IMG/VR virus record: IMGVR_UViG_3300034073_002120
Length of the DNA: 64,000 bases
Source: a virus
Taxonomy: Duplodnaviria > Caudoviricetes
Reading direction: 5' to 3' (one strand)
A program made the position numbers and the translations under genes. The notes below the pieces were generated by a model. That model had not been told where the DNA came from. It saw only the letters and a program-made list of their open reading frames with translations, and made no database searches. Below, one piece after another: positions 14,963 to 61,638 of the stretch. How positions within the stretch are numbered: the stretch's first letter is position 1; each line of letters opens with the position of its first letter.

Positions 14963-16429
14963 TTATAGTTTTACATTTATCATTTTTGCTTGAGGAGTTA
15001 ATTGATTAATAGAAATCAATTCATATTCTAATTGAGTAATTCCATCAGATTTATAATCCCAATTACCTTGTTGCATTTGTAAAACATATCGTCTTTCATT
15101 TCGAGCAGTTGTTTCTCCCTTTGCCCATTTATCAACTCCACCAACTTTTATCAATCCTTCATCTTTATGAGGTAAACAACGTAATCTACCTGGTCTTCTA
15201 TGTGGAATTATAGTGTATGGTATTTCTATTTTTTCCATAACCGATTGACAACGTTTAATATCACCATTAATTCCGTTTCCACTAAAATCAATTGCAACAT
15301 TTGGTGAATCTATTTGTGTTGGATGGTTAAAATCATAATGTAAAGTTAAACCATTTGATGGAAAACTTTTATGTAAATTTTTAATTTCTTCTGATGACAA
15401 AGCACGATTCCAAAATTTTATATTTGCTATATCACCTTTAAACCATTTATTTGGTTGTCCTTTTCCTACGGATGTTGTTGTTCCGATATAGTAATCATCC
15501 AATCCATAACTTTTTAAACGATTTTCATAATGTAGTGGTGATTCAGTACCAGTTCCATGTCTTGCATCACTTTCTTTACCATTTAAATAAAAGTGAATAT
15601 TTTGATTTGCAGAATCTACTGATAAGGTTACCCAACTCCACTGGTTTTCATAACGTTTTATCCACTGGTATAGATGTTTTTGCTCAGAATCCCAAAGTTG
15701 TGCGGTATATGCTCTACTATTGTTATATGATAATCCGTAATCGTATCCTGGTCTTCGTATAATAGGGTATTCACAAAATCGTCTTTCAGTATCACCCACT
15801 AACCAAATAGGAACTTTTTCTTCTTGTTGATTTGCACGAACTAAAACTGAAATTGTGTGTGAACGTGATGTTAGATTTCTAAGTGTATTATGTTTTTCAA
15901 TTTTAATATGTGATATTCTTCCATCAAAATGTAAAAATGATTGAGGTGTTTGTGTATATTCCATATAAGAATCGTTTGCATAACCTTCTAACACACATCT
16001 CCAAAATAAATCATCATCTTCCATACCCCAATCCCAATAATCATTAGAGTATCCATTTGTTCGTTCTACTTGTTCTTTGGAGAATATTACTGCACCACCA
16101 AAATACTCTTCGTATTTCAACTTATAATCCATTTGAGAGATATTCGTAGCGATGTGTATAGGATGTTCTTTTGGAAATGAATAATCACATCCTTCTTCTG
16201 GTATCATATCAATATCATGCCAAACTATATAATCACACCCATCTTCAAATGCGTGTTTAGCTGCAACGTTTTTCATTGCACCTCTATTAAATAATTTATC
16301 ATCAGTTTGATGACCAAAATATATACAAAAATCAATACCTTGTTCTGTTAAATATTTACTAACAGCCGGTATAAATTCTTTTAAATGTTCTTCTCTATTT
16401 CTATATGGTACGCAAACTCCTAATTTCAT
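14963..16429 (-). CDS. GT7 (beta-1,4-galactosyltransferase-like) with inserted LamG domain
   Basis: VPYRNR, FNRGAMKN, HDIDM, YFGG, NGYSNDYWDWGMEDDDL; then LamG (FYLNG, WFKGDIANIKFWNRALS); then the GT7 C-terminal tail. Confidence 0.85.
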   Translation of the reverse strand: MKLGVCVPYRNREEHLKEFIPAVSKYLTEQGIDFCIYFGHQTDDKLFNRGAMKNVAAKHAFEDGCDYIVWHDIDMIPEEGCDYSFPKEHPIHIATNISQMDYKLKYEEYFGGAVIFSKEQVERTNGYSNDYWDWGMEDDDLFWRCVLEGYANDSYMEYTQTPQSFLHFDGRISHIKIEKHNTLRNLTSRSHTISVLVRANQQEEKVPIWLVGDTERRFCEYPIIRRPGYDYGLSYNNSRAYTAQLWDSEQKHLYQWIKRYENQWSWVTLSVDSANQNIHFYLNGKESDARHGTGTESPLHYENRLKSYGLDDYYIGTTTSVGKGQPNKWFKGDIANIKFWNRALSSEEIKNLHKSFPSNGLTLHYDFNHPTQIDSPNVAIDFSGNGINGDIKRCQSVMEKIEIPYTIIPHRRPGRLRCLPHKDEGLIKVGGVDKWAKGETTARNERRYVLQMQQGNWDYKSDGITQLEYELISINQLTPQAKMINVKL

Positions 16430-17859
16430 TATATACCAACATTTATTATTTGAATTTTATCACTCACTCTTTCTATACCATATTCAATAAATTCAAGAGT
16501 GTTTAACCCATCATTATATATTAATTCGTGATGTTCGTTTACTTCATTTGTAAATCTAAGTTGATTCCAACGCGTTGATTGGTCTTTCCATTTATTTCCA
16601 ATAAATCCATTTTCTTCATGTTTGAGTGATTTAAAAAGAGATTCTCTTCGTTTTGGTACATCAAATTCGATAGTATCTTCAACATCCATTTCAATTATTT
16701 CACAATTAACAATTTCACCCATATTATCATTATATGATAAATCAATTAATTTATAATCACGACAATATGATGATTCATAATATAATTTTAAATTATCTGC
16801 AGATTTATATTCAGCAAAATTTACATTTAAAAGATTATTTTTATTATTAACTATTTCTAATATCTCCGTTTCATTCAACGTTTTATTGAAACATGCAAAA
16901 TACTCAAAATACCCCTTAAACCAATTTGGAATTATTTCTCTATCTGGATTACCTACTCCTAAGTAAATAAATTCTTCTTTTGTATATTTTGTATAAAATT
17001 TTCTAATAATTTCGGTTTCACCTATAAGAACACCATCTTGATACATTTTTATTGTTTTCGATGTGTTGTTATATGTAAGTGTTATATTAGTTCTATATGT
17101 TGGTTTAATTTCGGAATTTAAATATATTGCTTTTTTAGTAGAATCAAATACACAAAAATTATAACGATTAAACGATGTGTATGAAATAGCAAAATCATAA
17201 CCAGGAACACTAAAAATGGAATATTCATCCGATGGTTTAGTGTGGTCAAATTTTAAATCGGTTGGTTCAAAACAAACAGTTATAGAAAAATCATCAGTAA
17301 AATCTATTGTATTTTTTGCTTTAACTAAAGCATTATTTCCATTAAATTTTAATACTTGTTTATTTTTTGTAATGTTTTTAATATATTTTTTTGCAAGTGG
17401 AATATTGTGAAGTTTACATCTTAAAAATAAATCATCATCTTCATATCCCCAACCCCAATATTTGTTAGAATATCCATTAATTCTTTCAAAATCATCGACT
17501 GGGAACATTGTCACTCCACCGAAATATTGGTCAAATATTACTCTATGGTCTGATTTATTTTCAAATTCAAAATTTGTAGCAAGATGTATTGGAGAATCAG
17601 TTGGAGTGTAATCTGCATAGATAGGAAGCATATCTACATCGTGGAAAATTACATAATTACATCGTTGTTTTTTAGCATAACTAAATCCGATATTAAGTAA
17701 CATTCCACGATTAAATAATTTTGCATCATCTTGCTGAACAATTATTATTCTATAATCAATATGTGAATTTCTTCTAAAATATCGAGTTATATTTTTTTTA
17801 AATTCTTTTAAGTGTTCAGGTCGATTACGATATGGAACTATTATTCCAAGTCTATCCAT
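16429..17859 (-). CDS. GT7 (beta-1,4-galactosyltransferase-like) with inserted LamG domain
   Basis: VPYRNR, FNRGMLLN, HDVDM, YFGG, NGYSNKYWGWGYEDDDL; LamG (MYQDG, WFKGYFEYFACFNKTL); tail ...HEENG...DGLN. Confidence 0.85.
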   Translation of the reverse strand: MDRLGIIVPYRNRPEHLKEFKKNITRYFRRNSHIDYRIIIVQQDDAKLFNRGMLLNIGFSYAKKQRCNYVIFHDVDMLPIYADYTPTDSPIHLATNFEFENKSDHRVIFDQYFGGVTMFPVDDFERINGYSNKYWGWGYEDDDLFLRCKLHNIPLAKKYIKNITKNKQVLKFNGNNALVKAKNTIDFTDDFSITVCFEPTDLKFDHTKPSDEYSIFSVPGYDFAISYTSFNRYNFCVFDSTKKAIYLNSEIKPTYRTNITLTYNNTSKTIKMYQDGVLIGETEIIRKFYTKYTKEEFIYLGVGNPDREIIPNWFKGYFEYFACFNKTLNETEILEIVNNKNNLLNVNFAEYKSADNLKLYYESSYCRDYKLIDLSYNDNMGEIVNCEIIEMDVEDTIEFDVPKRRESLFKSLKHEENGFIGNKWKDQSTRWNQLRFTNEVNEHHELIYNDGLNTLEFIEYGIERVSDKIQIINVGI

Positions 17860-18096: not shown

Positions 18097-18945
18097 TTAT
18101 ATTTTGGTTATTATTTTACTCAATCGATTCCAATATGTATAATCGAAAAAATTACTTTTTGTATTCGTCATTTTTTCAATAAAAAACTTAGAATTTTCAA
18201 CATCTATTTTAAAATCGTTTGATTCTATTTCATTATACATTAGTTCATATTCGGATGAAAATGCATATTCTTTTTTAACATCTGCAACTTGTTTTATTCT
18301 ATCTACACAAGTAGAATCCCATTTAAAATGATGTACTTGTATTAATCCATCACCTCTACCAACTGGATAACGTTTTGGATGTGATGTACCCCAACTATTT
18401 TTCCCATCCTCTACAATTGCATAATGTTGACCAGGGGTTACATCAACATATCCTTTCATTATACAAACTTTATTAGGACAAGCCCCACTTAGTGGATGTC
18501 TAAAAAATCCAGCAAGTGGAAACTTTTCCCAAATATTAGAGTCTTTCTCAACGATTGGAAATTCTCCATTTTCTCCTATCCTATCTATGAATCCACCAGT
18601 TATAAAATCCCAACCATTTTCTTCGCATTCTGAAATAAGTTCTTTGATTGGTTTTGGATAAATGTGAAATTCATCATCGTCTGAAACTACCCACCATTCG
18701 TTTGGTTTGGTTCGTTTAATTTCGTTATATAATTCGGTTACTTTTTCCCAATTGAATTTTGGTTCAGTAACTACTTTAATTGGCGTAATTCCTAATTTTT
18801 TAACTTCATCTAATATACCATCGGTTTCTGTCTGTCTATAAACAACGACGTGTATTTCATCAACTAATGGTTTGTAATGATTAATCATATGACCCAACAT
18901 AGTTGTGTTATGACCTACTACTGTAACTAAATTTATTTTTGACAT
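18097..18945 (-). CDS. GT2-like glycosyltransferase (GT-A fold)
   Basis: LVTVV...MINHY, WWVVSDDDEF (DxD-like), GQH, VHHFKW. Confidence 0.7.
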   Translation of the reverse strand: MSKINLVTVVGHNTTMLGHMINHYKPLVDEIHVVVYRQTETDGILDEVKKLGITPIKVVTEPKFNWEKVTELYNEIKRTKPNEWWVVSDDDEFHIYPKPIKELISECEENGWDFITGGFIDRIGENGEFPIVEKDSNIWEKFPLAGFFRHPLSGACPNKVCIMKGYVDVTPGQHYAIVEDGKNSWGTSHPKRYPVGRGDGLIQVHHFKWDSTCVDRIKQVADVKKEYAFSSEYELMYNEIESNDFKIDVENSKFFIEKMTNTKSNFFDYTYWNRLSKIITKI

Positions 18946-19703
18946 CTTCTAACTAAAGTTAATCCGGTTGATGCTGGTTTATTTTTTTGAATTCCAAAAT
19001 TGAAAAGGTCAAATACTTCCCAATCTGAATTATCTTTAAGTTCTTTTGTGAATTTAATTGGGCCGTACCAATCATCAAAATCACCTCTATCTTTTACTTC
19101 ATCCGTAACGATGTAACTATCTGCATAATTTGGGTCGGTATCGTGAATTGAAATAATGGCGTTTGGAGAAAGTATTTGTGAATATAACTCAAAATCTTCT
19201 TTTACATTTTCATATGAATGTCCTGCATCTATATGTAAATAATCAATCTTAATATCGTTCAATACAAAGAAATTATGAAAGGCAGCTGCAGTTGTACTAC
19301 CAATAATACGTGGACAGAAAAAACGTCTAAAAAAAGATTCTTCTCTGAACCAATCTACATTACCTCCGATTCCATTCATTGCATCAACAACATAAGTAAC
19401 ACCAATATCACCCCAACTATAATCAGGGTTTCCATCAAATATTCCTTGTTGATGTAAATCGTATCTAGCTTGTGTCATTAATCTCGGAATAAATCCACCA
19501 CCACTACCTAAACATACACAAGTTTTTGCTCTCATATATTGTATAAGAGAATATACAATTAAACCGTCTCCCAAATGTAAATCAGTAGCACCATGTGACC
19601 AACGATATGGAACTGGCCTAACTTCTACTTCATGTGATTCGTTAAACTCCTGATTATTTGTCAGATTGTTTTTTAAGTATTCTAAATCTTGTAATGAAAC
19701 CAT
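18933..19703 (-). CDS. class I SAM-dependent methyltransferase (Methyltransf_24-like)
   Basis: VCLGSGGG, IDYLHIDAGHSYENVKEDF, IISIHDT. Confidence 0.85.
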   Translation of the reverse strand: MVSLQDLEYLKNNLTNNQEFNESHEVEVRPVPYRWSHGATDLHLGDGLIVYSLIQYMRAKTCVCLGSGGGFIPRLMTQARYDLHQQGIFDGNPDYSWGDIGVTYVVDAMNGIGGNVDWFREESFFRRFFCPRIIGSTTAAAFHNFFVLNDIKIDYLHIDAGHSYENVKEDFELYSQILSPNAIISIHDTDPNYADSYIVTDEVKDRGDFDDWYGPIKFTKELKDNSDWEVFDLFNFGIQKNKPASTGLTLVRRCQK

Positions 19704-19895: not shown

Positions 19896-20933
19896 TTATG
19901 ATAAAATTGCTGTACGGACTTTATCAATCCACTCCTCTTTATTATCAAATTTTTGCATATATTTTTTAAGATTTGACCAATTTTGGAATCGTTCTTCTTG
20001 TGAATCTTTTAATATTTGTTTTACACATTCATCGAACTCATTTTTAGTTGAAACTCTATATTTGTATTCAATTTCCGGTGCCCAATCTTTATTAATTATA
20101 GGTAATTTACCATAATCTACTGCCTGAAATATTGAATAACCAAATGGTTCTTTGAAATAAGCACCATGAAATATACCCCAATTTTTTAACATAAAAAAAT
20201 GATGAATAGTAGGGTCCCACTGAAATAAATCGATTCCATTTAACGAATATGTTGTAGTATCTCTTAAATTTTTTACATCAAATTGGTTAGTTAATACATA
20301 ACCTTTATGGTCATTCATCCAATGCAAACATTTACGTGATTCAGCACGAGATGCAAATCCAATTTTACCATTATCTATGTGAGTTGTAAGTGGTATATTA
20401 TTTTTGAATTCGTAAAAATTTGGAACGTTGTATGTGTAATTTGGAAATTCATCGATTAATTGAGTTTTATTATTTCCAATCCATATTCTTCGTTTAAATG
20501 TAGCTAGATATTCATCATAAAATTCTACATCTACTTTTGTTCCAAATTGTAATCGATTTATTTCTGGATTATTATCAATAACTTCTACCATTTCTCTAGC
20601 ATAAGCATGAACAAAAACTGTTCCAAATTTATCTTCCCAATGCCAAAGATGTGGACGATTGTGGTAATGTGGATGTAGAACATGAATTACTTCACTCTCT
20701 TCTAACCAACGATTTGTTTTTTCAGTATCATCGTAATGAAAATGAAATTGTAATCCTTTTGGTAAAGATTTTTCTTCAAAATTAATAGGTCTTTTAGAAT
20801 CGATTAATAATCTCCATTCCTTTTTTACAGGTAGAGTAGGCCAAACTAATTCTAAAAAATAATTAGTCCATATATCAGACCCACCTTGTATAGTGTTTCC
20901 TGCACCAGTTGTAACTAATAGTTTATACCCCAT
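19896..20933 (-). CDS. GT-B glycosyltransferase (GT4-like)
   Basis: GGSDIW N-terminal loop, IGFASRAESRK, EPFGYSIFQAVDYGKLPII. Confidence 0.75.
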   Translation of the reverse strand: MGYKLLVTTGAGNTIQGGSDIWTNYFLELVWPTLPVKKEWRLLIDSKRPINFEEKSLPKGLQFHFHYDDTEKTNRWLEESEVIHVLHPHYHNRPHLWHWEDKFGTVFVHAYAREMVEVIDNNPEINRLQFGTKVDVEFYDEYLATFKRRIWIGNNKTQLIDEFPNYTYNVPNFYEFKNNIPLTTHIDNGKIGFASRAESRKCLHWMNDHKGYVLTNQFDVKNLRDTTTYSLNGIDLFQWDPTIHHFFMLKNWGIFHGAYFKEPFGYSIFQAVDYGKLPIINKDWAPEIEYKYRVSTKNEFDECVKQILKDSQEERFQNWSNLKKYMQKFDNKEEWIDKVRTAILS

Positions 20934-20957: not shown

Positions 20958-21983
20958 TTATTCAAAAATAGCAGAAGCACAATTTCTACATATTGTATTA
21001 TATGATTCTTCCACTTTTTTTATATGCTCATCAGTTCCCCAAAAATCTTTTAATGTTTGTGTTTTAAAATCACCAAATTGTACTTCCATATCATAATCAT
21101 TGCAGCATAGAAATGCTTTACCTGCTGCATTTACATGAATCCATCCAACCGGTCTTCCACCAACCTCCCTACCATTACCACAGCCAATTACTTTTTTAGT
21201 CTCATCTCCTCCTTGTAAATTTCGTTTTATTGCTTTTTTATTAGTCATTATATTATCTAATAAACCGGCTCTATCAATTAAGGATGGCACATCGAATATT
21301 TGCAAACCAGGAAATAATTCTCTTGCTTTATTTGTTTGGGTTCGTAATTCACCGGTATTTGGGTCTAAATCCATATCGATGGGAAATTCTGGTCCTTTAT
21401 CTAACCAACCACCTCTATCACTAAAAGAATATTCGTTAGAACCATTTACCTGAATTGAAAATGATTTATTCTGAACCATGTCAGATAATTTTTCCATTGC
21501 GTATTTTACATTTGAAATTAGTTTATCAAATTGTTTAATATTAATGCCACTTCTCAAACTCCAAATATCAGGTTCAAATGCTGGAATATTCAAACATATA
21601 CCATTTACTACGCCCTTATATTTTACAATTAAATCTATTTTTTCGGAAGTCAAAGGAACTCCATTAGATAATACCATAAAACACAATCTATATTTCTGAC
21701 ATATTTTTAATAATTCTTCAAAATGTGGATATAATAAAATTTCATTATAATGTGCCGTATAAAATCCTCCAAAATTTTTGTGAACTAAGCCATCTGGTTT
21801 TTCTCTTTCATCTATTAGATTTTTAATTATTTTTTCTAATAATTCAGGACTCATCACTTCTTTACCATTTGTTGGATTACCTTTGTATTTTACCGGACAA
21901 AACCAACATTTTGCATTACATACTCCATATGGGTCTAATTGCATTTGATGGATTTTATAAGTTTGAAATTGCTCTTTTACCAT
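20958..21983 (-). CDS. radical SAM/SPASM protein
   Basis: CNAKCWFC, LSNG, C-terminal GKAFLCCND...CRNC. Start set at 21983 (TAATG overlap with upstream stop) rather than 22028. Confidence 0.85.
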   Translation of the reverse strand: MVKEQFQTYKIHQMQLDPYGVCNAKCWFCPVKYKGNPTNGKEVMSPELLEKIIKNLIDEREKPDGLVHKNFGGFYTAHYNEILLYPHFEELLKICQKYRLCFMVLSNGVPLTSEKIDLIVKYKGVVNGICLNIPAFEPDIWSLRSGINIKQFDKLISNVKYAMEKLSDMVQNKSFSIQVNGSNEYSFSDRGGWLDKGPEFPIDMDLDPNTGELRTQTNKARELFPGLQIFDVPSLIDRAGLLDNIMTNKKAIKRNLQGGDETKKVIGCGNGREVGGRPVGWIHVNAAGKAFLCCNDYDMEVQFGDFKTQTLKDFWGTDEHIKKVEESYNTICRNCASAIFE

Positions 21984-22960
21984 TATACTAATATTGATTT
22001 TTTTCCTACTTTTTGAATAAGTTGCCAATATTCATATGATGTAGTTCCTTCATTTATATTAATAGTTGCACCATATGGTAATTTATCCGTAAAATCTGAT
22101 TTATAAAATAATCCAGATGTTGAATTGACAACTCCTGCATTATGAAATATATTACATTCATCCCAAAGTTTATCTGCAGATGTACCCCAACTAAATTCTA
22201 AGTTTTCATGACAGATAGTTTCATATCCAAGTTTCCAACCATTCCACAAAACTGCCCACATATCTGCACACCATATTTGCAATGGATGATATGGAATTCG
22301 CTTTGGTGAATCAAGTGAATGGGTATGTCTATCTAATTGAATTTTTTCGTTATTTAATTCCGTTATATTGAAAAATAAATTTTCAGAATCGTCTTCTACT
22401 TTTTGCCAATAGTTTTCATCAATTCCCTTCATTATATATTGTGCCCCGATTGCGTTTAATTCGTTAGATTTGACTATCTCTTTATCTATGTCTACAATTT
22501 CACACATCTTATCTAATACATCTTCACCTTTACTGATAATGTAATCGTGTCCAATATACCAACGTGTATCACTACCATACCATTTTTCATCATCAATCAT
22601 TTCATCTGTAATCCATTCAGAAATTGGGTTTGTAAAAACTATATCACAATCATGATAGAAGATAGTTTCTTCTTTTAATTCTGGTCTATTTTTCCAATGC
22701 TGTTTTAATGCATTTGGTCTACTAGATGAAATATAATTTTTAGTTGTTCTAATATCATTATAAAAAAAGAATCTAACGTAATTATACTTTCCAGCTAGTT
22801 TAATCCATTCATCTGATATTAAGTCATTTTGTTTTATCCCAATAATATCTATATTATTTGGGTTTACTCCCATTTCTATAAAATTATGTATCATAACTTC
22901 AACCTGCCATGCGTAATAAAAAATAGCAGGTTGTGCACAAACAAAACGTAAATTTTTCAT
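21983..22960 (-). CDS. HPAT/SERGT-like (GT95/GT96-like) peptide O-glycosyltransferase
   Basis: YYAWQVEVMIHNF resembles plant HPAT Y..WQ..VM..F and SERGT YFDWQ...MHSF; also RPNALKQHW, YHDCD (DxD), CADMWAV. Confidence 0.6.
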   Translation of the reverse strand: MKNLRFVCAQPAIFYYAWQVEVMIHNFIEMGVNPNNIDIIGIKQNDLISDEWIKLAGKYNYVRFFFYNDIRTTKNYISSSRPNALKQHWKNRPELKEETIFYHDCDIVFTNPISEWITDEMIDDEKWYGSDTRWYIGHDYIISKGEDVLDKMCEIVDIDKEIVKSNELNAIGAQYIMKGIDENYWQKVEDDSENLFFNITELNNEKIQLDRHTHSLDSPKRIPYHPLQIWCADMWAVLWNGWKLGYETICHENLEFSWGTSADKLWDECNIFHNAGVVNSTSGLFYKSDFTDKLPYGATININEGTTSYEYWQLIQKVGKKSILV

Positions 22961-22972
22961 ATTTAATTATTT

Positions 22973-24151
22973 TTAAAGAATATCACATGCACCTCCTGAT
23001 GTGAAACGTCCACTTGAATTAATTGTTCCATATACTGCTCCATCTGAATATGTTGCTCCACCACCATCGAATGGTGAACCATCATAATTGTAGTAGAATC
23101 TACCACTTATCAATTCAGAATATAAATTTGAATATACTGTTGTACTATATGAACCATATTGTGCATCTGAACAAGCACTTCCACCTGAACCTGTACTACC
23201 TTGTGCAATATTAATTGAGTAATTCCATCCACTAGGTGCTTCAGTTGTTGTAGTAGTTGTAGTTGTAGTTGTTGCAGGTGCAACATAACAACTTAATGTA
23301 GTTGATTTTTCGGTATAATTACCAACACTATCCGTCAATCTAACCCACCAAGTTCCATCACTTAATGATGACCAATATTTAGATGATGCACCTCCTAATA
23401 TTTCAGGTTCTGCGTATGATAATGCAGCCTGAGAATCTGCAATTCTAACTTGACTATAAGAACCATTACCACCAGAGAAATTATATATCGTTACAGTGCC
23501 ATTGTAACCAGATGCATCTGGACAACTACTAGCTATTCCAAAATTAACTGCTGATAGTGTTGTAGTTGTTGTTGTAGTTGTTGTTGTAGTTGTTGTAGTA
23601 CATCCTGTAACTAATACACTTCTCATAGAAGTTCTACCACCATCATCTGCTAAAATAATATAATAAGTTTGACCGTTTGTTAAACCAGTAAAATCATAAT
23701 TTGATGTATTAAATGGAATAGTAATAGGACTACTTATAGAAGTATTTGCTTCAGTAGTTCCAATTTTAACATACGACCAACTATTATTACCACCACCAAA
23801 ATTATTTATTCGTATTGTACCTGTATCTCCGGTACATTCTAATAAAAATGCATTGAATGTAATTGCACCAAATGTTGTAGTAGTAGTTGTAGTAGTAGTT
23901 GTAGTTGTCGTAGTGGTAGTAGTAGTTGTAGGTGCAGCAGTAGTCGTTGTTGTAGTTGTTGGTGCGGTAGTAGTCGTTGTTGTAGTTGCACCACCTACAC
24001 TTCTTCCTCTAAACTCATCCATACCATGTGGTTTTGATGAAATACCATATGCAATTGCAGCAGTATCCATATCAATCTGAGCAGTAGCTGTTATTCCTCT
24101 ATCTGTATTAAAATCTCTAAATGATATTTCGCCGGTTGATGGAAGTGCCAT
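22973..24151 (-). CDS. Thr-rich mucin-like probable virion protein with two Cys-bounded beta modules
   Basis: N-terminal MALPSTGEISF typical of genes following phage tail fibres; three poly-Thr tracts; two SprB-like modules (C..GT..I.NF.GGN.S.S...L..G..Y/W...L.D..G). Confidence 0.75.
   Translation of the reverse strand: MALPSTGEISFRDFNTDRGITATAQIDMDTAAIAYGISSKPHGMDEFRGRSVGGATTTTTTTAPTTTTTTTAAPTTTTTTTTTTTTTTTTTTTFGAITFNAFLLECTGDTGTIRINNFGGGNNSWSYVKIGTTEANTSISSPITIPFNTSNYDFTGLTNGQTYYIILADDGGRTSMRSVLVTGCTTTTTTTTTTTTTTLSAVNFGIASSCPDASGYNGTVTIYNFSGGNGSYSQVRIADSQAALSYAEPEILGGASSKYWSSLSDGTWWVRLTDSVGNYTEKSTTLSCYVAPATTTTTTTTTTEAPSGWNYSINIAQGSTGSGGSACSDAQYGSYSTTVYSNLYSELISGRFYYNYDGSPFDGGGATYSDGAVYGTINSSGRFTSGGACDIL
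23873..23986 (-). repeat. poly-Thr (ACN)n coding tract with TTTTTTTAP repeats
   Basis: About 38 codons, mostly Thr; degenerate third positions indicate selection at the protein level. Confidence 0.9.
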
Positions 24152-27100
24152 TACTTATCTTTTTTTAATTCGTCAATTTCGTTTTTAAGTTGTTTAACCG
24201 ATTCAATTAAAAGAGGAACTAATTTTTCATATCTAACTCCTAAATATCCACCATTCATCGTATTAACAATTTCAGGAAATACAGCTTGAACTTCTTGTGC
24301 AACCACACCTACATCATGTCCTGTAAATATTGTTTGATTATTATTCCAATCAAACTCATATCCATTTAATTGTGTTAGTTTATCAATAGGATTTTCTATA
24401 AGTGTTAAATTATCTTTTAATCGTTTATCCGAAGATACATATGCAGTAATATTACCATCACATCCAATAGCACCAGAAACAAACAATTGATATGTTGAAG
24501 TATTATCTCTTGGTATTAATACCTTTCTATTAGCTGCAGAAACTACCTGAATACCTCCGGCATTAATTTCCGTAAATTCTTCCGATATAGCTAAAGACAT
24601 ACCAGATACATTAGGAGTTCTAATAGAGAGATATTGAGTCATACTATATGGATAACCAGTGGTGCTTCCGGCAGCTGAAAATGTTGCTATAGAAATACCA
24701 ACCGATATATAATATGTACCAGATTCTACTACAAAGTTGAAGGTACCTGAATTATTTGAAGTTAAATTGACAGTGCTACCATTATTATTACCACCACTAT
24801 CATTAAACGTTTTTGTTACGTTACCGGATGGAGTGTGTAAAGTTATAGAAACAGTAACAGTTCCACTCATTCCATACAAACTTACATTAGTTGTAGAAGC
24901 ATATGCAGATGCATACCAATATCCACTTTGTGGTGTTAGTGTATATGCTAATGTAGCAGTTTGTCCTATAACCGAACTCCATGAACTATTACTTACTTGA
25001 GTATATCCATAACCAGTGTATCCACTTAAACTAGCAGCAATATAGTTAGTTTGTGTTGGACCATTTGATGTAGATGCTACGAATGAAGTTGCTATTGATG
25101 TTGTTGCAAGTGTAGGAGTTGATATAGATGGTTGTGTAAATGATGCATCGTTAGATATAGTTACACGAGTTTCATTTGTGGATGCATCATTTAATTTTAT
25201 GCTAGGTTCAAGTGAATTCAACACTAAATAATTTGCTGACATAGCTCCAGCACCAATTGTAAATCCACCAATATTACCACCGGTTGCATTAATAGTTCCA
25301 ACGAAATTACCGCCTGATGCGAATAAATTACCTGCAGTATCTACTGAAAAATTTTGTCCTATTTGAAAACTACCACCTGTTACTGTTACATTTGAAGCAA
25401 CCACTGCCCCTGCAGGACTTACTTTGAATGGTGCTGCTGCATAAGATGCATTTCCTAAGTAAATTCCATCTGGATCTGCTTTGAAAATATTATCACCACT
25501 ACCGATTGAAATTGTACCACCACTTAAAGCACCTGTAAATGTTCCACTTGCCCCACTTAATGCTCCGGTAAATGTACCACCACCATTTATACTCAATGCA
25601 GACCCATTCCAAGTTACGTTTCCATTTCCTAAACTAAACGTTCCATCTGAATACCAATAATCATTTGAATCGATGTAAATACCATCAGATGTTCCATTTA
25701 CATCATTTCCCAAACTCATTCCACCTGCAGTAATCTTACCAGCAAATGTTCCACCTGCAGCAGATAAGTTTCCACTAAATGTACCACCACCTGTAATTGA
25801 AAGATTTGTTCCATCCCACAATAATGAGTTTGATGCACTTTTTAGAGAAAGTTTTCCACTCGTTCCATCACTACCAATCCACGCACCAGTTTGGTCATAA
25901 CCTTTGGTTGCTTGACCAATGGAAATATATGGTGAGGTTGTACCACCGGCAATAGTAATATTAGCATTACCTGATGTGTTAGTTCCAACGTTTATAGTTT
26001 CCTTAACATAAGATTCTCTAAATATGGCAATTTCAGCTGCTACAAAATAAGAATCAGTTCCTAATGATTCCCAAAACGCAGTTTGAGTATCTGGTTGTTT
26101 ATTTAAGTTCGTAGTTGCGTTTGGTAATGTTGCATAATAAGTTCCACTATATAAAACAGCATCTCTACGAGTCGGATAATCATCAGTATCGTAATAAGTT
26201 GTAGTAGAACTCCACGGCCCCCTAAATACAACACCCGGTCCATCCGCACCATCTGTTCCATCAGTTCCGTCAGTTCCATCAGTTCCGTCAGTTCCATTCG
26301 TACCATCAATTGTTACACTAACTCTATGAACTTTTGTAATTGTACCAGATGTTCCTTCCGAATTTACATATGTTATTGTTAAAGAAACTGTTGTTCCGGC
26401 ATCAGTTGTTGGTGTTGTTGGAGTAATTGTTCCACTTGAATTAGAACCACCTGTAATTGCAGAAACATAATAAGTATTTATTGCACCACCAGTTGAATAT
26501 GAATAGTTAGAACCTCCCTCATTCACCGATGTTGTAAATGTAGATGGTGTTCCATATGTACCTGTATTTGATTTTGTAATCGATTGTGCATCATTTGATA
26601 AAAGAGCAATCACAATCGGAGCAGGTCTTTTTGCTTTTGTGTAAGTTACAATTTTTGTTACATCGGTTGTATCACCTGCACCATCTTTATATCTAACTAA
26701 TAAACTTAATGAACCACTATCTTTTGTTAAAGATGTAATACCATACGTTGCATCATCTGGAGTTGTATCATTTGCAACAACATTTGTTTCAGTTGCAGAA
26801 ATAATATCAAAACGATTATTTGTAGATAAACCTTCTTCTCTTGTTATATCTTCACCTCCAACTTTCACACTTACCGAACCACTTGTCAATACAAATGAAC
26901 CACTCTCAACAAATCCAGTCGATTTAGCAGGAAGAGTTGCGTTTTCATTTGTAAGAGTTACTGATAATCCATCTAATATTTTTACAGGTGTAATTTTAAT
27001 GAAATCAGAATAATTTATTCCATAATTATCCGATGCAGTAAATGAATATACTACCTCACCTGTTCCATATGAAAAAGTAGAACCACTTAAAAAATAAGTA

Positions 27101-29283
27101 GATACACCAGTTCCACCATCCGTACTTAATAATGTTAAAGGTGGTGCACCTGCCGTTGAATTCACTGTTATTGCAGTAATTGCAGATGCTAAATTTTTTC
27201 TTTTTGCATCAAATAATATTTTTTGTCCAGCTGGGTTTAGTGATAAATCCGTTGCTTTATAAATGAATTGATTTGCGTTAGATGTTACAAAAAGACCGGG
27301 TGCGTTATCACCATCTTCAAATCTATATATCGTTTCGTATTCTTCGATTGCTTCACATGATGCAGTGTATGTTATTGAACCTACTATTATTGAACTACTT
27401 AATTCTCCTTTAAAATTATCTATTACTAATGTTGCACCACCATCACCAAATGAAGAAAATCCACCAGGATATGTTCCACCATAAGAACCCGGTGAAATGT
27501 AATTACCACTTGTATCAAATGCAGATGAATAATAAGTTACACTACCTGTTAAATTTTGTTTTGTTACTTTGAATCCAATTTGTTGAGTTTGTGGATTAGC
27601 AAATGAGCCAGTAGAAAATCTAAAAGCAGTTCTATCAGATTCGAATGTTAGTAACTTTGTTGATGTTGGAAAATTATTACCGCCTGTAAATTGTTTTGAA
27701 GCAAATACATCTACTGGTATGTAGTTGTTATTTATATCATAAAATTCAAAACGGAAATCAAAAGTTTCTGATGCCACATTTTTAGAAACATCTTGTACTA
27801 TTGTAAATTCATCAGGTGAAAATGATGTTTCTTGTGCATTTTTCAAACTCACATTTGATATGTACCAACCACTACCATTAAACTCAAATACCAATTTGGC
27901 ATTTTCAGAACTACTGATAGGGGATGCAATTATATTTTGTGTAATATCTTGTTTTGTTTGATATATTGCAGAACCTGATAATGTTGTAAATTCTTGTGTA
28001 TAATTTGATGAACTTAAATACGCACGAAGTGTTTTTGAACTATCTACCGAACCACTATAAAGTGTTTTGAAACTAAGTGTATATTCCACATCTTTTGATA
28101 TGGAAATAGATTCGGTTGTATATAATGTTTGAACCCCAACTTGTCCATTTGTAGGTTTTACCGATGCGTATAATTTATCTAAGTTTATTGTTGGTTGTAA
28201 ATTAGCAGAACCAGTCCAATATGTATTTAAATTTGTTTGAGTAAAATTACCAAATGAAATATCGGTTTGACCTGTTGCTGTTAAATCTCTTAATAATTCA
28301 GTAGATTCTAATTTAGATTCTTGTACTAAAACATAATCACCAACATCGTTACGAGATTTACGGAATACTTTTACTCTTGCAACATCACCAACAAATGTTT
28401 TAAGATTTGAAATGTTTATTTTTGCAAACGAACCATTTAGAGCAGATTCTTCGAATGTTTGACCATCTAAATATTCAAATGATGATGTGTAACTAGTTTG
28501 TGCAAAATTTGTTACAACATTATTGATTGTATATGGAGTATCAACTAAAATCTCATCAGTATTTAAAACCTCTAAAACTTTAGCAGAATATCCGATTTCA
28601 GGTAATTCAATTGTATTTTCATCAATCGATGATGTCCATCCTGCACCACTAACTCTTTTTAATTTATACAAAGTTCCTGCAGTCCATCTACTTAAATTTG
28701 TTCCAGCAATAGGAATTTCTGAAATACCCTCTACTGAACCACTTTGTGTTATGAATGGAGTTGTTACGTTATAGATTGGTTTTACAATCTCATCTATTGT
28801 AATTGTTGGTCTTCTATAAAATCTTACACGAGTTTCGTTTGTTATATTTTTGTTGATTTGGAATGTCTTTTCCCACTTTACATTATATGTACCTTTCCAT
28901 TCTACTGGAATATCACGAATAACCCCGCTAGCATCCTCATAAGTCTTCAATTCTCCTAAAATGGTAATCTTACCTATCCCAATAGGTGTGTCCTCATAAA
29001 CGTGGACAGAAATCAATTTAGATATACCCTCATAATATTCAGGCACACCATTACCCGGTTCATAGTAAATAGGATTACCATCTACATCTAAAATCTCAAT
29101 TTTTATTTCAGTTGTTTCTTTTAAATGCTCAGAACCCTCAATTAAGAATCCGTTTTTACCACCTGTAAAAGTTTCATTAAATTCCGTAATACGAAAATAA
29201 TCAGAATTAGGATTTTGGTCTATGATAAACGTTCCGTAATTCGATAAATTTTGTAGTGGTGAATATGATTTGATTATTGCCAT
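24151..29283 (-). CDS. long tail fibre/tail protein with C-terminal peptidase S74 chaperone
   Basis: 1710 aa, Gly/Ser/Thr-rich repeats, collagen-like GTD repeats, C-terminal SDKRLKDN...LNGYEFDWN...GVVAQEV...VRYEKLVPLLIES. Confidence 0.85.
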   Translation of the reverse strand: MAIIKSYSPLQNLSNYGTFIIDQNPNSDYFRITEFNETFTGGKNGFLIEGSEHLKETTEIKIEILDVDGNPIYYEPGNGVPEYYEGISKLISVHVYEDTPIGIGKITILGELKTYEDASGVIRDIPVEWKGTYNVKWEKTFQINKNITNETRVRFYRRPTITIDEIVKPIYNVTTPFITQSGSVEGISEIPIAGTNLSRWTAGTLYKLKRVSGAGWTSSIDENTIELPEIGYSAKVLEVLNTDEILVDTPYTINNVVTNFAQTSYTSSFEYLDGQTFEESALNGSFAKINISNLKTFVGDVARVKVFRKSRNDVGDYVLVQESKLESTELLRDLTATGQTDISFGNFTQTNLNTYWTGSANLQPTINLDKLYASVKPTNGQVGVQTLYTTESISISKDVEYTLSFKTLYSGSVDSSKTLRAYLSSSNYTQEFTTLSGSAIYQTKQDITQNIIASPISSSENAKLVFEFNGSGWYISNVSLKNAQETSFSPDEFTIVQDVSKNVASETFDFRFEFYDINNNYIPVDVFASKQFTGGNNFPTSTKLLTFESDRTAFRFSTGSFANPQTQQIGFKVTKQNLTGSVTYYSSAFDTSGNYISPGSYGGTYPGGFSSFGDGGATLVIDNFKGELSSSIIVGSITYTASCEAIEEYETIYRFEDGDNAPGLFVTSNANQFIYKATDLSLNPAGQKILFDAKRKNLASAITAITVNSTAGAPPLTLLSTDGGTGVSTYFLSGSTFSYGTGEVVYSFTASDNYGINYSDFIKITPVKILDGLSVTLTNENATLPAKSTGFVESGSFVLTSGSVSVKVGGEDITREEGLSTNNRFDIISATETNVVANDTTPDDATYGITSLTKDSGSLSLLVRYKDGAGDTTDVTKIVTYTKAKRPAPIVIALLSNDAQSITKSNTGTYGTPSTFTTSVNEGGSNYSYSTGGAINTYYVSAITGGSNSSGTITPTTPTTDAGTTVSLTITYVNSEGTSGTITKVHRVSVTIDGTNGTDGTDGTDGTDGTDGADGPGVVFRGPWSSTTTYYDTDDYPTRRDAVLYSGTYYATLPNATTNLNKQPDTQTAFWESLGTDSYFVAAEIAIFRESYVKETINVGTNTSGNANITIAGGTTSPYISIGQATKGYDQTGAWIGSDGTSGKLSLKSASNSLLWDGTNLSITGGGTFSGNLSAAGGTFAGKITAGGMSLGNDVNGTSDGIYIDSNDYWYSDGTFSLGNGNVTWNGSALSINGGGTFTGALSGASGTFTGALSGGTISIGSGDNIFKADPDGIYLGNASYAAAPFKVSPAGAVVASNVTVTGGSFQIGQNFSVDTAGNLFASGGNFVGTINATGGNIGGFTIGAGAMSANYLVLNSLEPSIKLNDASTNETRVTISNDASFTQPSISTPTLATTSIATSFVASTSNGPTQTNYIAASLSGYTGYGYTQVSNSSWSSVIGQTATLAYTLTPQSGYWYASAYASTTNVSLYGMSGTVTVSITLHTPSGNVTKTFNDSGGNNNGSTVNLTSNNSGTFNFVVESGTYYISVGISIATFSAAGSTTGYPYSMTQYLSIRTPNVSGMSLAISEEFTEINAGGIQVVSAANRKVLIPRDNTSTYQLFVSGAIGCDGNITAYVSSDKRLKDNLTLIENPIDKLTQLNGYEFDWNNNQTIFTGHDVGVVAQEVQAVFPEIVNTMNGGYLGVRYEKLVPLLIESVKQLKNEIDELKKDK
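26238..26307 (-). repeat. 9-bp periodic repeat encoding collagen-like (G-T-D)n
   Basis: DGTNGTDGTDGTDGTDGTDGADG. Confidence 0.85.
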
Positions 29284-57827: not shown

Positions 57828-59558
57828 CTATTTAATTTTTTTCTTAACGATATAATTTCCTAATACTAATGTATCCATTTCACAATCTAAAAAAGTTTCA
57901 ATTGCATCCTTTGGTGAATTTACAATTGTTTTATCTTTTAAATTGAATGATGTGTTTAGGACAATCGGGTATCCATTATCTCTTTCTAATTGATTTAATA
58001 ATGAATACATTCTTTTATGTTGTCTATTATTTAAGGTTTGAATTCTTGCAGAACCATCTACGTGAGTAATTGCCGGTAAATTATCTATATGTTCTGAATT
58101 TACTTTTACCACTTGATTCATATAGGGAACTAATAGTTTGTAATCAAAATATTTTAATCTATCCTCTTCTTTTACGATTGGAGCAAATGGTCTAAACCCT
58201 TCTCTTTTTTTGATTACTCTATTTACCCTACTTTTCATTTGAGGGTCTCTTGGGTTAGCAAGTATAGAACGATTACCGAGTGCTCGAGAACCAAATTCCA
58301 TTCTACCTTCGTACCAACCAATAACATTTCCATCTGTAATTTCCTTAGAAATAATTGGAATAAGTTCGGAGTGATTTTTGTATTCATACCATACATCGTT
58401 TGATTGTTTATCTAATTCTTCTTTAATTTCATCATTTGAATGCCATGGGCCTAAGTATGGATTCGTATTATCAACTCTACCAGCATTTTCAGTATGAGTA
58501 TAATAATATTCTAAAGCACATCCAATTGCAGAACCGGCATCAGATGGTGCAGGTGGAATCCATAATTGTTTATATGGAGATTCTTTTGTTATTTTTCCGT
58601 TTGCAGTTCCATTATATGCACACCCACCACTTAAACACAAACTATATGATGGATTAGTTGCAAACATTTTATTTATTAAACGGAAAAAGAAATATTCATA
58701 TTGTGATTGAATTGTTGCTGCTAAATCCTTATGATGTTGTTCTATCTTATCTTCTGGTAATCGATTTGGAATACCTAATAATAATCCTAATTTTTCATTA
58801 AACATAGAATTGTTTGAATAATCATATGTGAAATAATCCATATTGATTTCAAACCCACCATCTTCGGTTTCTTTAATAAGTTCTTTAAAATGTTTTGTAT
58901 AAACGTTCGGATTACCATATGGTGCAAGACCCATTACCTTATACTCACCCTCATTTGGTTTAAATCCTAAGAATGCAGTAAATGCAGAATAAATCATTCC
59001 CAACGAATGTGGAAATTTAATATTCTGAATTTTTGTGATTTTATTATTTTCTGCAAATGCTAAAACTGTGGTTTCCCATTCCCCAACACCATCTACTGAA
59101 ATGATTGCTGAACGGTCAAATGGAGATGTGTAATAAGAATACGCAATGTGAGATAAATGATGGTCTCCGTATGATAAAATTATTTTATCGTTTGTGATTT
59201 CATAAATCTTACGTTCCGTTTCTTTATATTTTTGTTTATTTTCTTTTAGAATAGCATTACGTTTGAAGTATTGTAATAACCCACCTCTCTTAGTGGTTTC
59301 TTCGATGCGTTCTAACTTTGTTGTTGGGTTTTCATAAAACGAAACTACCGATACATCCGCACCGGTAATTTTGAATTCGTTATATAACCAATTTATTGCA
59401 TTAGTGGGAAAAGAAGAATCATGTTTAATTCCCGTAAATCTTTCTTCTTCTACTGCTCCTAAAACTTTTCCATCTTTTAATAAACATGCTGCAGAATCAT
59501 GATATCCACATGCTATTCCTAAAATATATTTATTCTTCATCATAATCTTCATCACCAC
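57828..59558 (-). CDS. carbamoyltransferase (NodU/CmcH/TobZ family)
   Basis: GYHDSAACL, EEERF..KH, HHLSH, DGVGE, GEYKVMGLAPYG, SGGCAYN, PAPSDAG, EFGSRALGNRS, FRPFAP, HVDGSARIQT, LNTSFN; true start probably near 59540. Confidence 0.95.
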   Translation of the reverse strand: MVMKIMMKNKYILGIACGYHDSAACLLKDGKVLGAVEEERFTGIKHDSSFPTNAINWLYNEFKITGADVSVVSFYENPTTKLERIEETTKRGGLLQYFKRNAILKENKQKYKETERKIYEITNDKIILSYGDHHLSHIAYSYYTSPFDRSAIISVDGVGEWETTVLAFAENNKITKIQNIKFPHSLGMIYSAFTAFLGFKPNEGEYKVMGLAPYGNPNVYTKHFKELIKETEDGGFEINMDYFTYDYSNNSMFNEKLGLLLGIPNRLPEDKIEQHHKDLAATIQSQYEYFFFRLINKMFATNPSYSLCLSGGCAYNGTANGKITKESPYKQLWIPPAPSDAGSAIGCALEYYYTHTENAGRVDNTNPYLGPWHSNDEIKEELDKQSNDVWYEYKNHSELIPIISKEITDGNVIGWYEGRMEFGSRALGNRSILANPRDPQMKSRVNRVIKKREGFRPFAPIVKEEDRLKYFDYKLLVPYMNQVVKVNSEHIDNLPAITHVDGSARIQTLNNRQHKRMYSLLNQLERDNGYPIVLNTSFNLKDKTIVNSPKDAIETFLDCEMDTLVLGNYIVKKKIK

Positions 59559-61020: not shown

Positions 61021-61638
61021 TTATACAATCTCTGCACCTAACTCTAAGAATGGTTGTGCTTTTTTATATTTCATAAATTCGGTTTTCCCATCTGGTAATT
61101 TAACCATAACCATTTCATTTCTACCATAAGTTTTAGGAGCAATGTATGTAGTTGTATATCTACGTTCTGGGTTTGTAATAAGAATACCATCTAAGTGGTC
61201 GATTTCATGTTGTGCACATACACACTCCATTAAACCAGCATCACCAAAGAATTCATCTGCATCTTTCCAATCGTTGAATTGATTATCTGCTTTAAATTCT
61301 ACAACACCTAAGTTGTCGGTTTCTACTAAAATTCGTTTTGAACGAACTGTTTTAACTGGACTTTTTAATGTCTTATCGATTGATAAACATTGCTCTACAT
61401 AGGCAACAGCATCTTCTGAGCGTTCTATGATTGTTGGGTTGATTAAAACTAACGGCTCGATTACCTTAATTATACATGCACGAACATCCAAACCTAATTG
61501 ATTAGCAGATAATCCAATACCACCGTGTTTTTCTAATTCAGTAGTAAGGGTTTCAGTAATCTTTTGAATTTCTTCAGCAGATAATTTTGAAGGTTTAATC
61601 GGTTTAGATAGTTTAAGTTTGTCTTTTACAATTTGCAT
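61021..61638 (-). CDS. def: peptide deformylase
   Basis: GIGLSANQLG, EQCLS, QHEIDHLDG. Confidence 0.9.
   Translation of the reverse strand: MQIVKDKLKLSKPIKPSKLSAEEIQKITETLTTELEKHGGIGLSANQLGLDVRACIIKVIEPLVLINPTIIERSEDAVAYVEQCLSIDKTLKSPVKTVRSKRILVETDNLGVVEFKADNQFNDWKDADEFFGDAGLMECVCAQHEIDHLDGILITNPERRYTTTYIAPKTYGRNEMVMVKLPDGKTEFMKYKKAQPFLELGAEIV

Follow-up and report, generated by a model that had tools for sequence, protein, structure and literature searches.

We analysed a 64,000-nucleotide stretch of DNA (the whole of which we call the window) from an uncultured tailed phage, IMG/VR record IMGVR_UViG_3300034073_002120, and consider it likely that it encodes a virus-borne system for O-glycosylation of threonine (Thr). 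The system centres on two neighbouring genes. One encodes ThrP, a modular protein with three Thr tracts, and the next encodes GTx, predicted to be a cytoplasmic, Mn2+-type glycosyltransferase of the GT-A fold that glycosylates these tracts, after which other transferases would extend the glycan. This reading builds on gene anatomy, a predicted fold with conserved catalytic-type residues, adjacency statistics, domain fusions and a covariation between linker chemistry and enzyme type, and from these we infer the acceptor, the first-sugar role, the donor and stereochemistry of GTx and the biological role of the glycan.

The phage is from freshwater or groundwater, and DNA of this region is present in subsurface and freshwater metagenomes from eight studies; none of the RNA runs searched contains it, and no DNA similarity between the window and known phages was found. 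The genes of the region, including those for a tail fibre, ThrP and GTx, are all on the minus strand. The ThrP start codon overlaps the stop codon of the fibre gene (TAATG), and the order of fibre gene and linker-protein gene recurs in loci L066 and L099-L110. A preliminary description had noted Thr tracts of about 38, 14 and 11 residues, which is essentially right (Table 1), and, 12 nt after the gene that encodes them, an open reading frame (ORF) of 325 codons with the motifs YYAWQVEVMIHNF, RPNALKQHW and DCD, all of which are present. ThrP is the only poly-Thr ORF in any frame of the window (at least 6 Thr in 8 residues, among ORFs of at least 80 aa). Its Thr codons are a mixture of ACT, ACA, ACG and ACC, so that a simple slippage repeat is excluded as the origin of the tracts.

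Poly-Thr genes upstream of GTx and the chemistry of the linkers

For the analysis of adjacency, we used 88 GTx loci, comprising 80 from IMG/VR and 8 from distantly related cultured phages. These were collapsed at 85% GTx identity to 49 clusters, 47 of which have a usable upstream gene, and a tract was scored as strict poly-Thr if it had at least 8 Thr in 10 residues. Such a tract is encoded by the immediately upstream gene, on the same strand, in 31 of 47 lineages, by the immediately downstream gene in 0 of 46, and by 27 of the 715 other genes (Fisher's exact test for the upstream gene, p = 4.5e-13 versus downstream and 1.5e-27 versus other genes; the lineages are not fully independent). These lineage counts rule out chance adjacency (p = 1.5e-27). 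Several upstream genes that do not count as strict poly-Thr nevertheless encode proteins with 17-26% Thr. One abundant GTx lineage has no adjacent poly-Thr gene; among five records of this kind, three encode long poly-Thr modular proteins elsewhere.

In all eight distant cultured phages, which infect Lactobacillus, Enterococcus, Staphylococcus, Clostridium and Chryseobacterium and whose homologs are 28-36% identical to GTx, a Thr-rich tail is encoded just upstream of the homolog. The carriers of these tails are a major capsid protein, major tail proteins, small immunoglobulin (Ig)-like proteins and an unannotated frame, and three cultured phages that differ greatly from one another have the gene of a poly-Thr protein directly 5' of the GTx homolog. 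The C-terminus of the major capsid protein reads TTTTTTT in iLp84 and TTTTTTKPTTTTTTT in Enterococcus phage 4995_1, where this gene is upstream of the homolog, and that of the upstream gp18 in phiCTP1 is TTTTTNAPITTTTTT. An Ig-like protein upstream of the homolog in Lactobacillus phage 521B ends in TTVKP/TTVAP repeats. The major tail protein of Staphylococcus phage SA2 ends in TTTTTTTT, followed by an overlapping poly-Thr ORF, and Enterococcus phage Planchet has an unannotated poly-Thr frame between the capsid gene and the GTx homolog. Since the carriers (capsid, tail tube, Ig-like decoration and fibre-associated proteins) are not homologous to one another, the link between them and GTx appears to be functional rather than inherited. 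Together, the adjacency counts and the anatomy of the window link a phage gene for a predicted glycosyltransferase to Ser/Thr-rich segments of known or presumed virion proteins, as in the virion O-glycosylation systems of mycobacteriophages, and the co-occurrence with Thr-rich genes across phages that the preliminary description had proposed to look for is evident in both the lineage counts and the distant cultured phages.

The poly-Thr frames that overlap or follow the end of the gene for the SA2 major tail protein (L087:8667-8930) and that for the Planchet major capsid protein (L085 around 8823) may be frameshift extensions that tag a fraction of subunits.

A second line of evidence comes from orthologs of ThrP, whose loci were found with its N-terminal 54 residues and thus independently of GTx. 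Where the linkers are of the Thr or TTAAP type, in the window and in L103, GTx is the next gene (71% identical in L103). In six further loci, representing about four lineages, the linkers are instead rich in Pro: poly-Pro in L099, PPTPA in L104, TPQVTPAPNV in L106-L108 and PTPAPTPA in L110. None of these six has GTx within up to 4.5 kb downstream, and all six have a 2-oxoglutarate (2OG)-Fe(II) oxygenase of the prolyl 4-hydroxylase (P4H) type, while P4H-like genes occur in just 2 of the 88 GTx loci. In four of the six (L104, E 3.5e-36, and L106-L108) there is also a 'GlcNAc' transferase of PF11397, which we take to be the Pfam family of the Skp1 hydroxyproline (Hyp) N-acetylglucosamine (GlcNAc)-transferase Gnt1, and in three (L106-L108, E 6.6e-11) a protein above the threshold of PF23452, the family of hydroxyproline O-arabinosyltransferases (HPAT). 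The modifying enzymes therefore switch with the chemistry of the linker, with GTx accompanying Thr, and a hydroxylase and Hyp-type transferases accompanying Pro. Nothing else in the data argues as strongly for the linkers being the substrates, and for GTx being the step specific to Thr. The preliminary description's link between the enzyme and the adjacent Thr-rich protein thus gains support from the directional adjacency, from the covariation of Thr and Pro linkers and from the glycosyltransferase fusions and neighbourhoods of GTx described below. A 399-aa gene in L099 was considered as a relative of GTx and rejected, as BLASTP found no relation and the gene is a homolog of u345, another gene of the window (see below).

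Beside genes for Pro-rich linker proteins, L104:7630-9042 and L106:7657-11071 form a candidate phage cassette for Hyp glycosylation, which is similar to the Skp1 pathway of protists and the extensin pathway of plants. Its genes encode a 2OG oxygenase of the P4H type, a Gnt1-type transferase (PF11397), a protein of the HPAT family (PF23452) and a GDSL-like esterase. Orthologs of ThrP with Pro linkers also end in a domain of about 150 aa that resembles Hint/intein domains (C...VHN; L104:6001-7620, L106:6001-7650 and L110:1542-3242). This domain, recognized by weak Pfam matches to Hom_end_hint and PT-HINT, is absent from ThrP of the window, and its presence suggests that the fibre-associated protein undergoes autoprocessing or ligation at the C-terminus.

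Fold, sequence family and relatives of GTx

An AlphaFold (AF2) model of GTx, made from an alignment of 64 homologs with 30-87% identity (alignment A1), has high predicted confidence (predicted local distance difference test, pLDDT, 96.8; predicted template modelling score, pTM, 0.93) and a GT-A fold. The motifs YYAWQVEVMIHNF and RPNALKQHW are at residues 15-27 and 81-89, respectively, and D104-C-D106 forms the DxD motif. D106, Q174, H273 and K287 are invariant in A1 and D104 is conserved in at least 90%; by comparison with GT8-like enzymes, these five would be residues of the metal site, the donor site and the catalytic face. The first beta-strand of the model begins at residue 4 and the N-terminus has no hydrophobic segment, so GTx lacks a type II membrane anchor.

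The nine best matches of this model among Swiss-Prot AlphaFold models (E 1.4e-10 to 1e-7, TM 0.52-0.63) are two GT96 and seven GT95 enzymes of plants and algae. Arabidopsis SGT1 is first (E 1.4e-10, TM 0.52 by query), the seven HPAT, RDN, PLENTY and NOD3 models have E-values of 6e-10 to 6e-8 and TM of 0.60-0.63, and the peptidyl-Ser alpha-galactosyltransferase SGT1 of Chlamydomonas has an E-value of 1e-7. GT8-type enzymes all rank below these, with TM of about 0.45. Solved structures closest to GTx, which include no GT95 or GT96 entry, are LgtC and glycogenin (both Z 14.1), the Skp1 alpha-galactosyltransferase AgtA, WbbM and the catalytic domain of UGGT (Z 13-14, Foldseek E about 1e-6). The resemblance to plant GT95 and GT96 enzymes, which the preliminary description had guessed from short motifs and proposed to examine by structure, thus holds at the level of the fold, where these models head the list, but does not extend to membership of the Pfam HPAT family.

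By sequence, ties to HPAT are weak. GTx has no Pfam match at E-values up to 0.1 and no NCBIfam match, searches of PDB sequences with GTx and its profile returned noise only, and its sole family match is phrog_4417, of unknown function (E 5e-61). Neither GTx nor its 64 relatives match PF01501 (Glyco_transf_8) at E up to 1. PF23452 is matched weakly by 2 of the 64 members of A1 (best E 0.046), and is the sole Pfam family matched by more than one of them; it is also found in part of the members of ESM Atlas clusters that look like GTx. The profile of A1 aligns weakly but co-linearly over 234 columns with that of a phage protein family that passes the PF23452 threshold (A3), with the W-Q, DxD, GG, W..M and H...K motifs aligned. 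Against single proteins of the Pro-type cassettes (P4H, PF11397 and HPAT proteins), the A1 profile gave no significant match. Since GTx is below the Pfam HPAT threshold, the similarity is one of fold or superfamily and not of family membership. Based on the predicted structure, GTx is therefore distantly related to plant and algal HPAT (GT95) and SGT1 (GT96) and to GT8-like retaining enzymes, and belongs to an HPAT/SGT1-like, GT8-like superfamily while lying outside GT95, GT96 and GT8 themselves. As a separate observation, ESM Atlas clusters from Pseudomonadota join a PqqD domain, a peptide-recognition element in the pathways of ribosomally synthesized and post-translationally modified peptides, with an HPAT-family domain. 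This is a hint that members of this superfamily glycosylate peptides in bacteria.

At 90% identity, GTx relatives form 2626 clusters (E at most 1e-5); at 50% identity the number of clusters is 847. A total of 358 relatives were confirmed on IMG/VR contig stretches. They also occur in 77 GenBank phage records, with phages of Lactobacillus, Enterococcus, Staphylococcus, Lactococcus, Clostridium and Chryseobacterium, and no Pfam domain was found among the 120 clusters (90% identity) listed. The family is thus unannotated in Pfam and NCBIfam, and mostly phage-borne.

Several known systems resemble parts of this one. GT95 and GT96 enzymes add the first sugar to hydroxy-amino-acid repeats of extended, proline-rich structural proteins; for GT95, the acceptor is peptidyl Hyp and the donor UDP-L-arabinofuranose. 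The logic proposed for GTx is the same, and the best-matching enzymes, SGT1/SERGT1 (GT96) and HPAT1-3, RDN1/2, PLENTY and NOD3 (GT95, PF23452), share with it the GT-A fold, the DxD and an N-terminal aromatic-W-Q motif. GTx differs from them in being below the PF23452 threshold, in having no membrane anchor, in its probable site of action, which would be the bacterial cytoplasm and not the Golgi, and in its likely acceptor, which is Thr rather than Ser or Hyp. Gene context points to Thr over Hyp, because Thr linkers pair with GTx and Pro linkers with P4H (and an HPAT gene in L106-L108); the true HPAT-family genes of the sister phages, whose products align co-linearly with GTx, accompany Pro-rich linkers and a prolyl hydroxylase. 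GT8-like enzymes (glycogenin, LgtC, AgtA, UGGT of GT24, and GlyD/GlyE) match the fold of GTx with Z 12.6-14.1 over 213-246 residues and share its GT-A fold, DxD and C-terminal His...Lys pattern, and several of them act on proteins or protein-bound glycans in the cytoplasm. However, their sequences are about 10% identical to GTx, which does not match Pfam Glyco_transf_8, and structural scores are below those of the GT95 and GT96 models. The protist Skp1 pathway (PhyA P4H, Gnt1 and AgtA), with its cytoplasmic glycosylation, and chlorovirus PBCV-1, with a virus-encoded prolyl 4-hydroxylase and capsid glycosyltransferases, are further parallels. Pro-linker sister cassettes likewise pair a P4H-type oxygenase with a PF11397 transferase, and A64R of PBCV-1 is a structural neighbour of GTx (Z 11.1), but these pathways are those of eukaryotes or their viruses, and the window has Thr linkers and GTx in place of the Hyp route.

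The nearest described system is virion glycosylation in mycobacteriophages Che8, Corndog and Myrna, where phage-encoded transferases put O-linked glycans on virion proteins (Freeman et al. 2023, Cell Host Microbe, as summarized in PMC12619734), and the Thr tags of distant GTx relatives are at the C-termini of capsid and tail-tube proteins as in those phages. The window differs in enzyme family and hosts, and in that its Thr runs are internal pure-Thr linkers of a separate modular protein encoded after the tail fibre, not a C-terminal tag. The mycobacteriophage enzymes are reportedly of the GT2 type. Our literature search found glycosylated phage particles demonstrated for mycobacteriophages only, and no description of the GTx family, of phage poly-Thr tags or of phage Hyp glycosylation.

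Proposed modification of ThrP and alternative explanations

In the mechanism that we propose, ThrP, a string of Ig-like modules, would be made together with the tail fibre, and GTx, as a soluble, metal-dependent GT-A enzyme, would late in infection move a sugar from a nucleotide sugar to the hydroxyls of the poly-Thr tracts in the host cytoplasm. By analogy with the structural neighbours, the linkage would probably be alpha, that is, formed with retention. Candidates for extending and tailoring the glycan are the GT-B-like u345, a GT2-like enzyme, two GT7-LamG enzymes, methyltransferases and radical S-adenosylmethionine (SAM) enzymes. The expected product is a fibre-associated virion protein in which stiff, protease-resistant, mucin-like glycosylated linkers separate the Ig-like modules; its location on the tail, the glycan brush it would form there and the sugars used are all parts of this proposal.

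A broader reading is more tentative, and we regard the case for and against it as close to balanced. According to this reading, GTx would found a new family of polypeptide Thr O-glycosyltransferases that is tied to HPAT/SGT1 and spread across phages from Firmicutes siphophages to large aquatic myophages. Phages would then possess two interchangeable, eukaryote-like chemistries for glycosylating the linkers of one fibre-associated protein, either directly on Thr, or by conversion of Pro to Hyp and subsequent glycosylation of Hyp (using P4H, Gnt1-like and HPAT-like enzymes).

Several points weigh against the assignment of GTx to ThrP. The loci of the adjacency test were collected via GTx, and the p-values are inflated because the lineages are not independent. 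A strict poly-Thr neighbour is absent in about a third of lineages, and the complete 65-kb record G002 has no run of 8 Thr codons. The set of Pro-type loci is small, with six loci in about four lineages. GTx itself fails the Pfam HPAT and GT8 models, and the profile link between A1 and A3 is weak (E 0.0026, probability 12%), so glycosylation by this family is a prediction from modelled structure and gene context; it is likewise gene context that places ThrP in the virion. Tracts of poly-Thr, Thr/Pro and poly-Pro can also serve as plain extended linkers that are unmodified. Finally, adjacency cannot separate a first-sugar from a later-sugar role, and u345 could be the initiator.

This last point corresponds to an alternative that we consider unlikely, in which GTx works in the same protein-glycosylation pathway and adds a later sugar, with u345 or a host enzyme starting on Thr. 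Consistent with this, u345 resembles GT-B transferases and is kept at 65-78% identity in both types of cassette, and GlyE and GlyD, GT8-domain enzymes that elongate the glycans of serine-rich repeat proteins, are among the structural neighbours of GTx. However, u345 homologs are found in just 4 of 88 GTx loci, and the component that switches with linker chemistry is GTx, not u345. In the stretches examined of the small siphophages iLp84, 4995_1, phiCTP1 and SA2, there is no other annotated glycosyltransferase that could start the glycan, and the nearest structural relatives of GTx act directly on peptide hydroxyls.

It is still less probable that the acceptor is not a protein, and that GTx modifies bases of phage DNA, polymers of the host cell wall or a small molecule while adjacency reflects a shared insertion site of accessory genes in late operons. 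The best-known roles of phage glycosyltransferases are in DNA glucosylation and serotype conversion (PMC12619734), the family of the T4 DNA alpha-glucosyltransferase is the top ESM Atlas feature match of u345, and the fold alone does not define the acceptor. Such an insertion site is difficult to reconcile with strictly directional adjacency in unrelated phages and to non-homologous carriers, or with the replacement of GTx by Hyp-directed enzymes exactly where Thr linkers turn to Pro, and among the window ORFs scanned there is no DNA-modification gene of the hydroxymethylase type. We give the least credence to the idea that the Thr tracts carry no modification and serve as flexible or extended spacers, co-inherited with GTx as a block without any enzyme-substrate relation, since, although ortholog linkers vary freely (poly-Thr, TTAAP, PPTPA and poly-Pro) as expected where only length or stiffness matters, an inherited block explains neither the pairing with unrelated carriers (capsid, tail tube, decoration and fibre-associated) in unrelated phages nor the matched switch of enzyme type and linker chemistry.

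If GTx does glycosylate Thr tracts, phrog_4417 would gain a name and a function, and glycosylated virion proteins would become predictable from sequence by a simple, recognizable tag (poly-Thr). Because the gene pair recurs in very different phages, many of them probably sugar-coat their virion proteins by this undescribed route. The family is far more widespread than the mycobacteriophage enzymes, and unrelated to them. Such coats would bear on phage stability, host range and adhesion to mucus or biofilms, and on how antibodies recognize therapeutic phages of Enterococcus, Staphylococcus and lactic acid bacteria, and GTx would be a soluble enzyme for making mucin-like Thr-glycosylated polypeptides in the bacterial cytoplasm. 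Should the broader reading also apply, mucin- or extensin-like glycoprotein rods would be a common, overlooked component of virions. The Thr and Pro sister cassettes are a rare natural experiment on the co-evolution of substrate chemistry and modifying enzymes, and connect enzymes of phages with the extensin pathway of plants and the Skp1 pathway of protists.

ThrP modules, the sugar island and other genes of the window

Table 1. Positions of ThrP, GTx and neighbouring features in the window
Position	Strand	Feature	Basis or remark
24151..29283	-	Tail fibre, 1710 aa	C-terminal Peptidase_S74 chaperone domain, Pfam PF13884, E 3e-14
22973..24151	-	ThrP, 392-aa modular protein, proposed glycosylation substrate	
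23990..24151	-	ThrP N-terminal conserved domain, residues 1-54, possible virion-attachment domain	Marks orthologous slot after fibre
23873..23989	-	Thr tract 1, residues 55-93	39 aa, 33 Thr, A/AP/AAP interruptions
23600..23872	-	Module A, Ig/FN3-like beta-sandwich, SprB-repeat-like, Cys-bounded	pLDDT >90; tandem FN3/Ig matches; repeat alignment A4
23558..23599	-	Thr tract 2, residues 185-198	14 Thr
23282..23557	-	Module B, Ig/FN3-like beta-sandwich	AlphaFold, FN3/Ig matches, repeat alignment
23243..23281	-	Thr tract 3, residues 291-303	APA then 10 Thr
22976..23242	-	ThrP C-terminal Gly/Ser/Tyr-rich module	pLDDT <50, shallow alignment
21983..22960	-	GTx, 325-aa glycosyltransferase of predicted GT-A fold, proposed Thr O-glycosyltransferase	phrog_4417, AF2 model, Foldseek and VIA-align matches
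22643..22651	-	D104-C-D106 codons, DxD metal/nucleotide-sugar motif of GTx	Conserved in 64 homologs; aligns with DxD of phage HPAT-family proteins
20958..21983	-	Radical SAM/SPASM enzyme	Pfam PF04055, PF13186; starts where GTx ends
19896..20933	-	u345, 345 aa, probably a GT-B (GT4/AGT-like) glycosyltransferase	No Pfam matches
18933-19703	-	Methyltransf_24 methyltransferase	Pfam
18097-18945	-	GT2-like transferase	Pfam
14963..17859	-	Two tandem GT7 (beta-1,4-galactosyltransferase-like) enzymes, each with LamG/concanavalin-like domain	PF13733, PF02709, PF13385
1..14937	-	Nucleotide-sugar and tailoring island, about 15 kb	Pfam and NCBIfam

The N-terminal domain of ThrP is 74-89% identical in P0275-P0279 and 63-75% in L104-L110 (alignment A2). 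In an AlphaFold model of ThrP, residues 95-181 and 202-286 form confident beta-sandwich modules (pLDDT about 90) that match tandem fibronectin type III (FN3)/Ig domains, and confidence is low for the two terminal parts and for the Thr tracts. Both modules are members of a family of Cys-bounded repeats (A4) that is common to many proteins encoded upstream of GTx, and resemble SprB repeats, with a weak Pfam SprB match in the L106 ortholog (E 0.003). A tblastn search of phage records with ThrP gave no match. That the ThrP gene is translationally coupled to the gene of the fibre, in an order conserved among loci, suggests that ThrP is a fibre-associated virion protein. A scan for promoters and terminators in the 16-30 kb part of the window gave counts at chance level, so no operon boundaries can be called there.

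The gene after GTx encodes a radical SAM/SPASM enzyme without a fitting NCBIfam equivalog, which may modify the peptide or the first sugar. A gene of this kind immediately follows GTx in 15 of 88 loci, and is fused to it in P0134. The next gene, u345, has homologs with 65-78% identity in L099, L104, L106-L108 and L110, and is conserved in Thr-type and Pro-type cassettes. Its feature matches in the ESM Atlas, which serve as a lead only, are all GT-B families (score 0.95-0.97), with the T4 DNA alpha-glucosyltransferase family (PF11440) and GT4 families among the best look-alikes, so u345 is probably a GT-B transferase, whose acceptor may be a protein glycan or DNA. The Methyltransf_24 and GT2-like genes co-occur with u345 in L004, L011, L026, L066 and L104. 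The tandem GT7-LamG architecture is unusual for the GT7 family, which is mostly eukaryotic.

The remainder of the island encodes a cytidylyltransferase, a 2OG-Fe(II) oxygenase, three short-chain dehydrogenase/reductase (SDR) epimerase/dehydratases, an RmlC-like epimerase, a split thiamine pyrophosphate (TPP) enzyme, a haloacid dehalogenase (HAD) phosphatase, two further radical SAM enzymes and proteins without assigned function. The oxygenase is of the P4H-type family PF13640 and lies at the far end of the island (845-1537), despite the Thr-type linkers of the window. In other genomes GTx is fused to GT2+GT32, GT6, GT7, Methyltransf_24 or radical SAM-SPASM domains, or has GT2, GT32 or GT4+methyltransferase genes downstream, and this variety is compatible with a first step that is conserved and an elaboration that varies. 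In the window, the greater part of the 24-kb sugar island is not conserved with GTx, and its assignment to the ThrP glycan is therefore tentative, although it is plausible that the island extends this glycan.

The phage also encodes, in the distal part of the window, a NodU/CmcH-like carbamoyltransferase (57828-59558; phrog_1601, E 7e-118), a peptide deformylase (61021-61638) and an S-adenosylmethionine synthetase (61903-62859), the last of which would supply the radical SAM enzymes and methyltransferases of the island.

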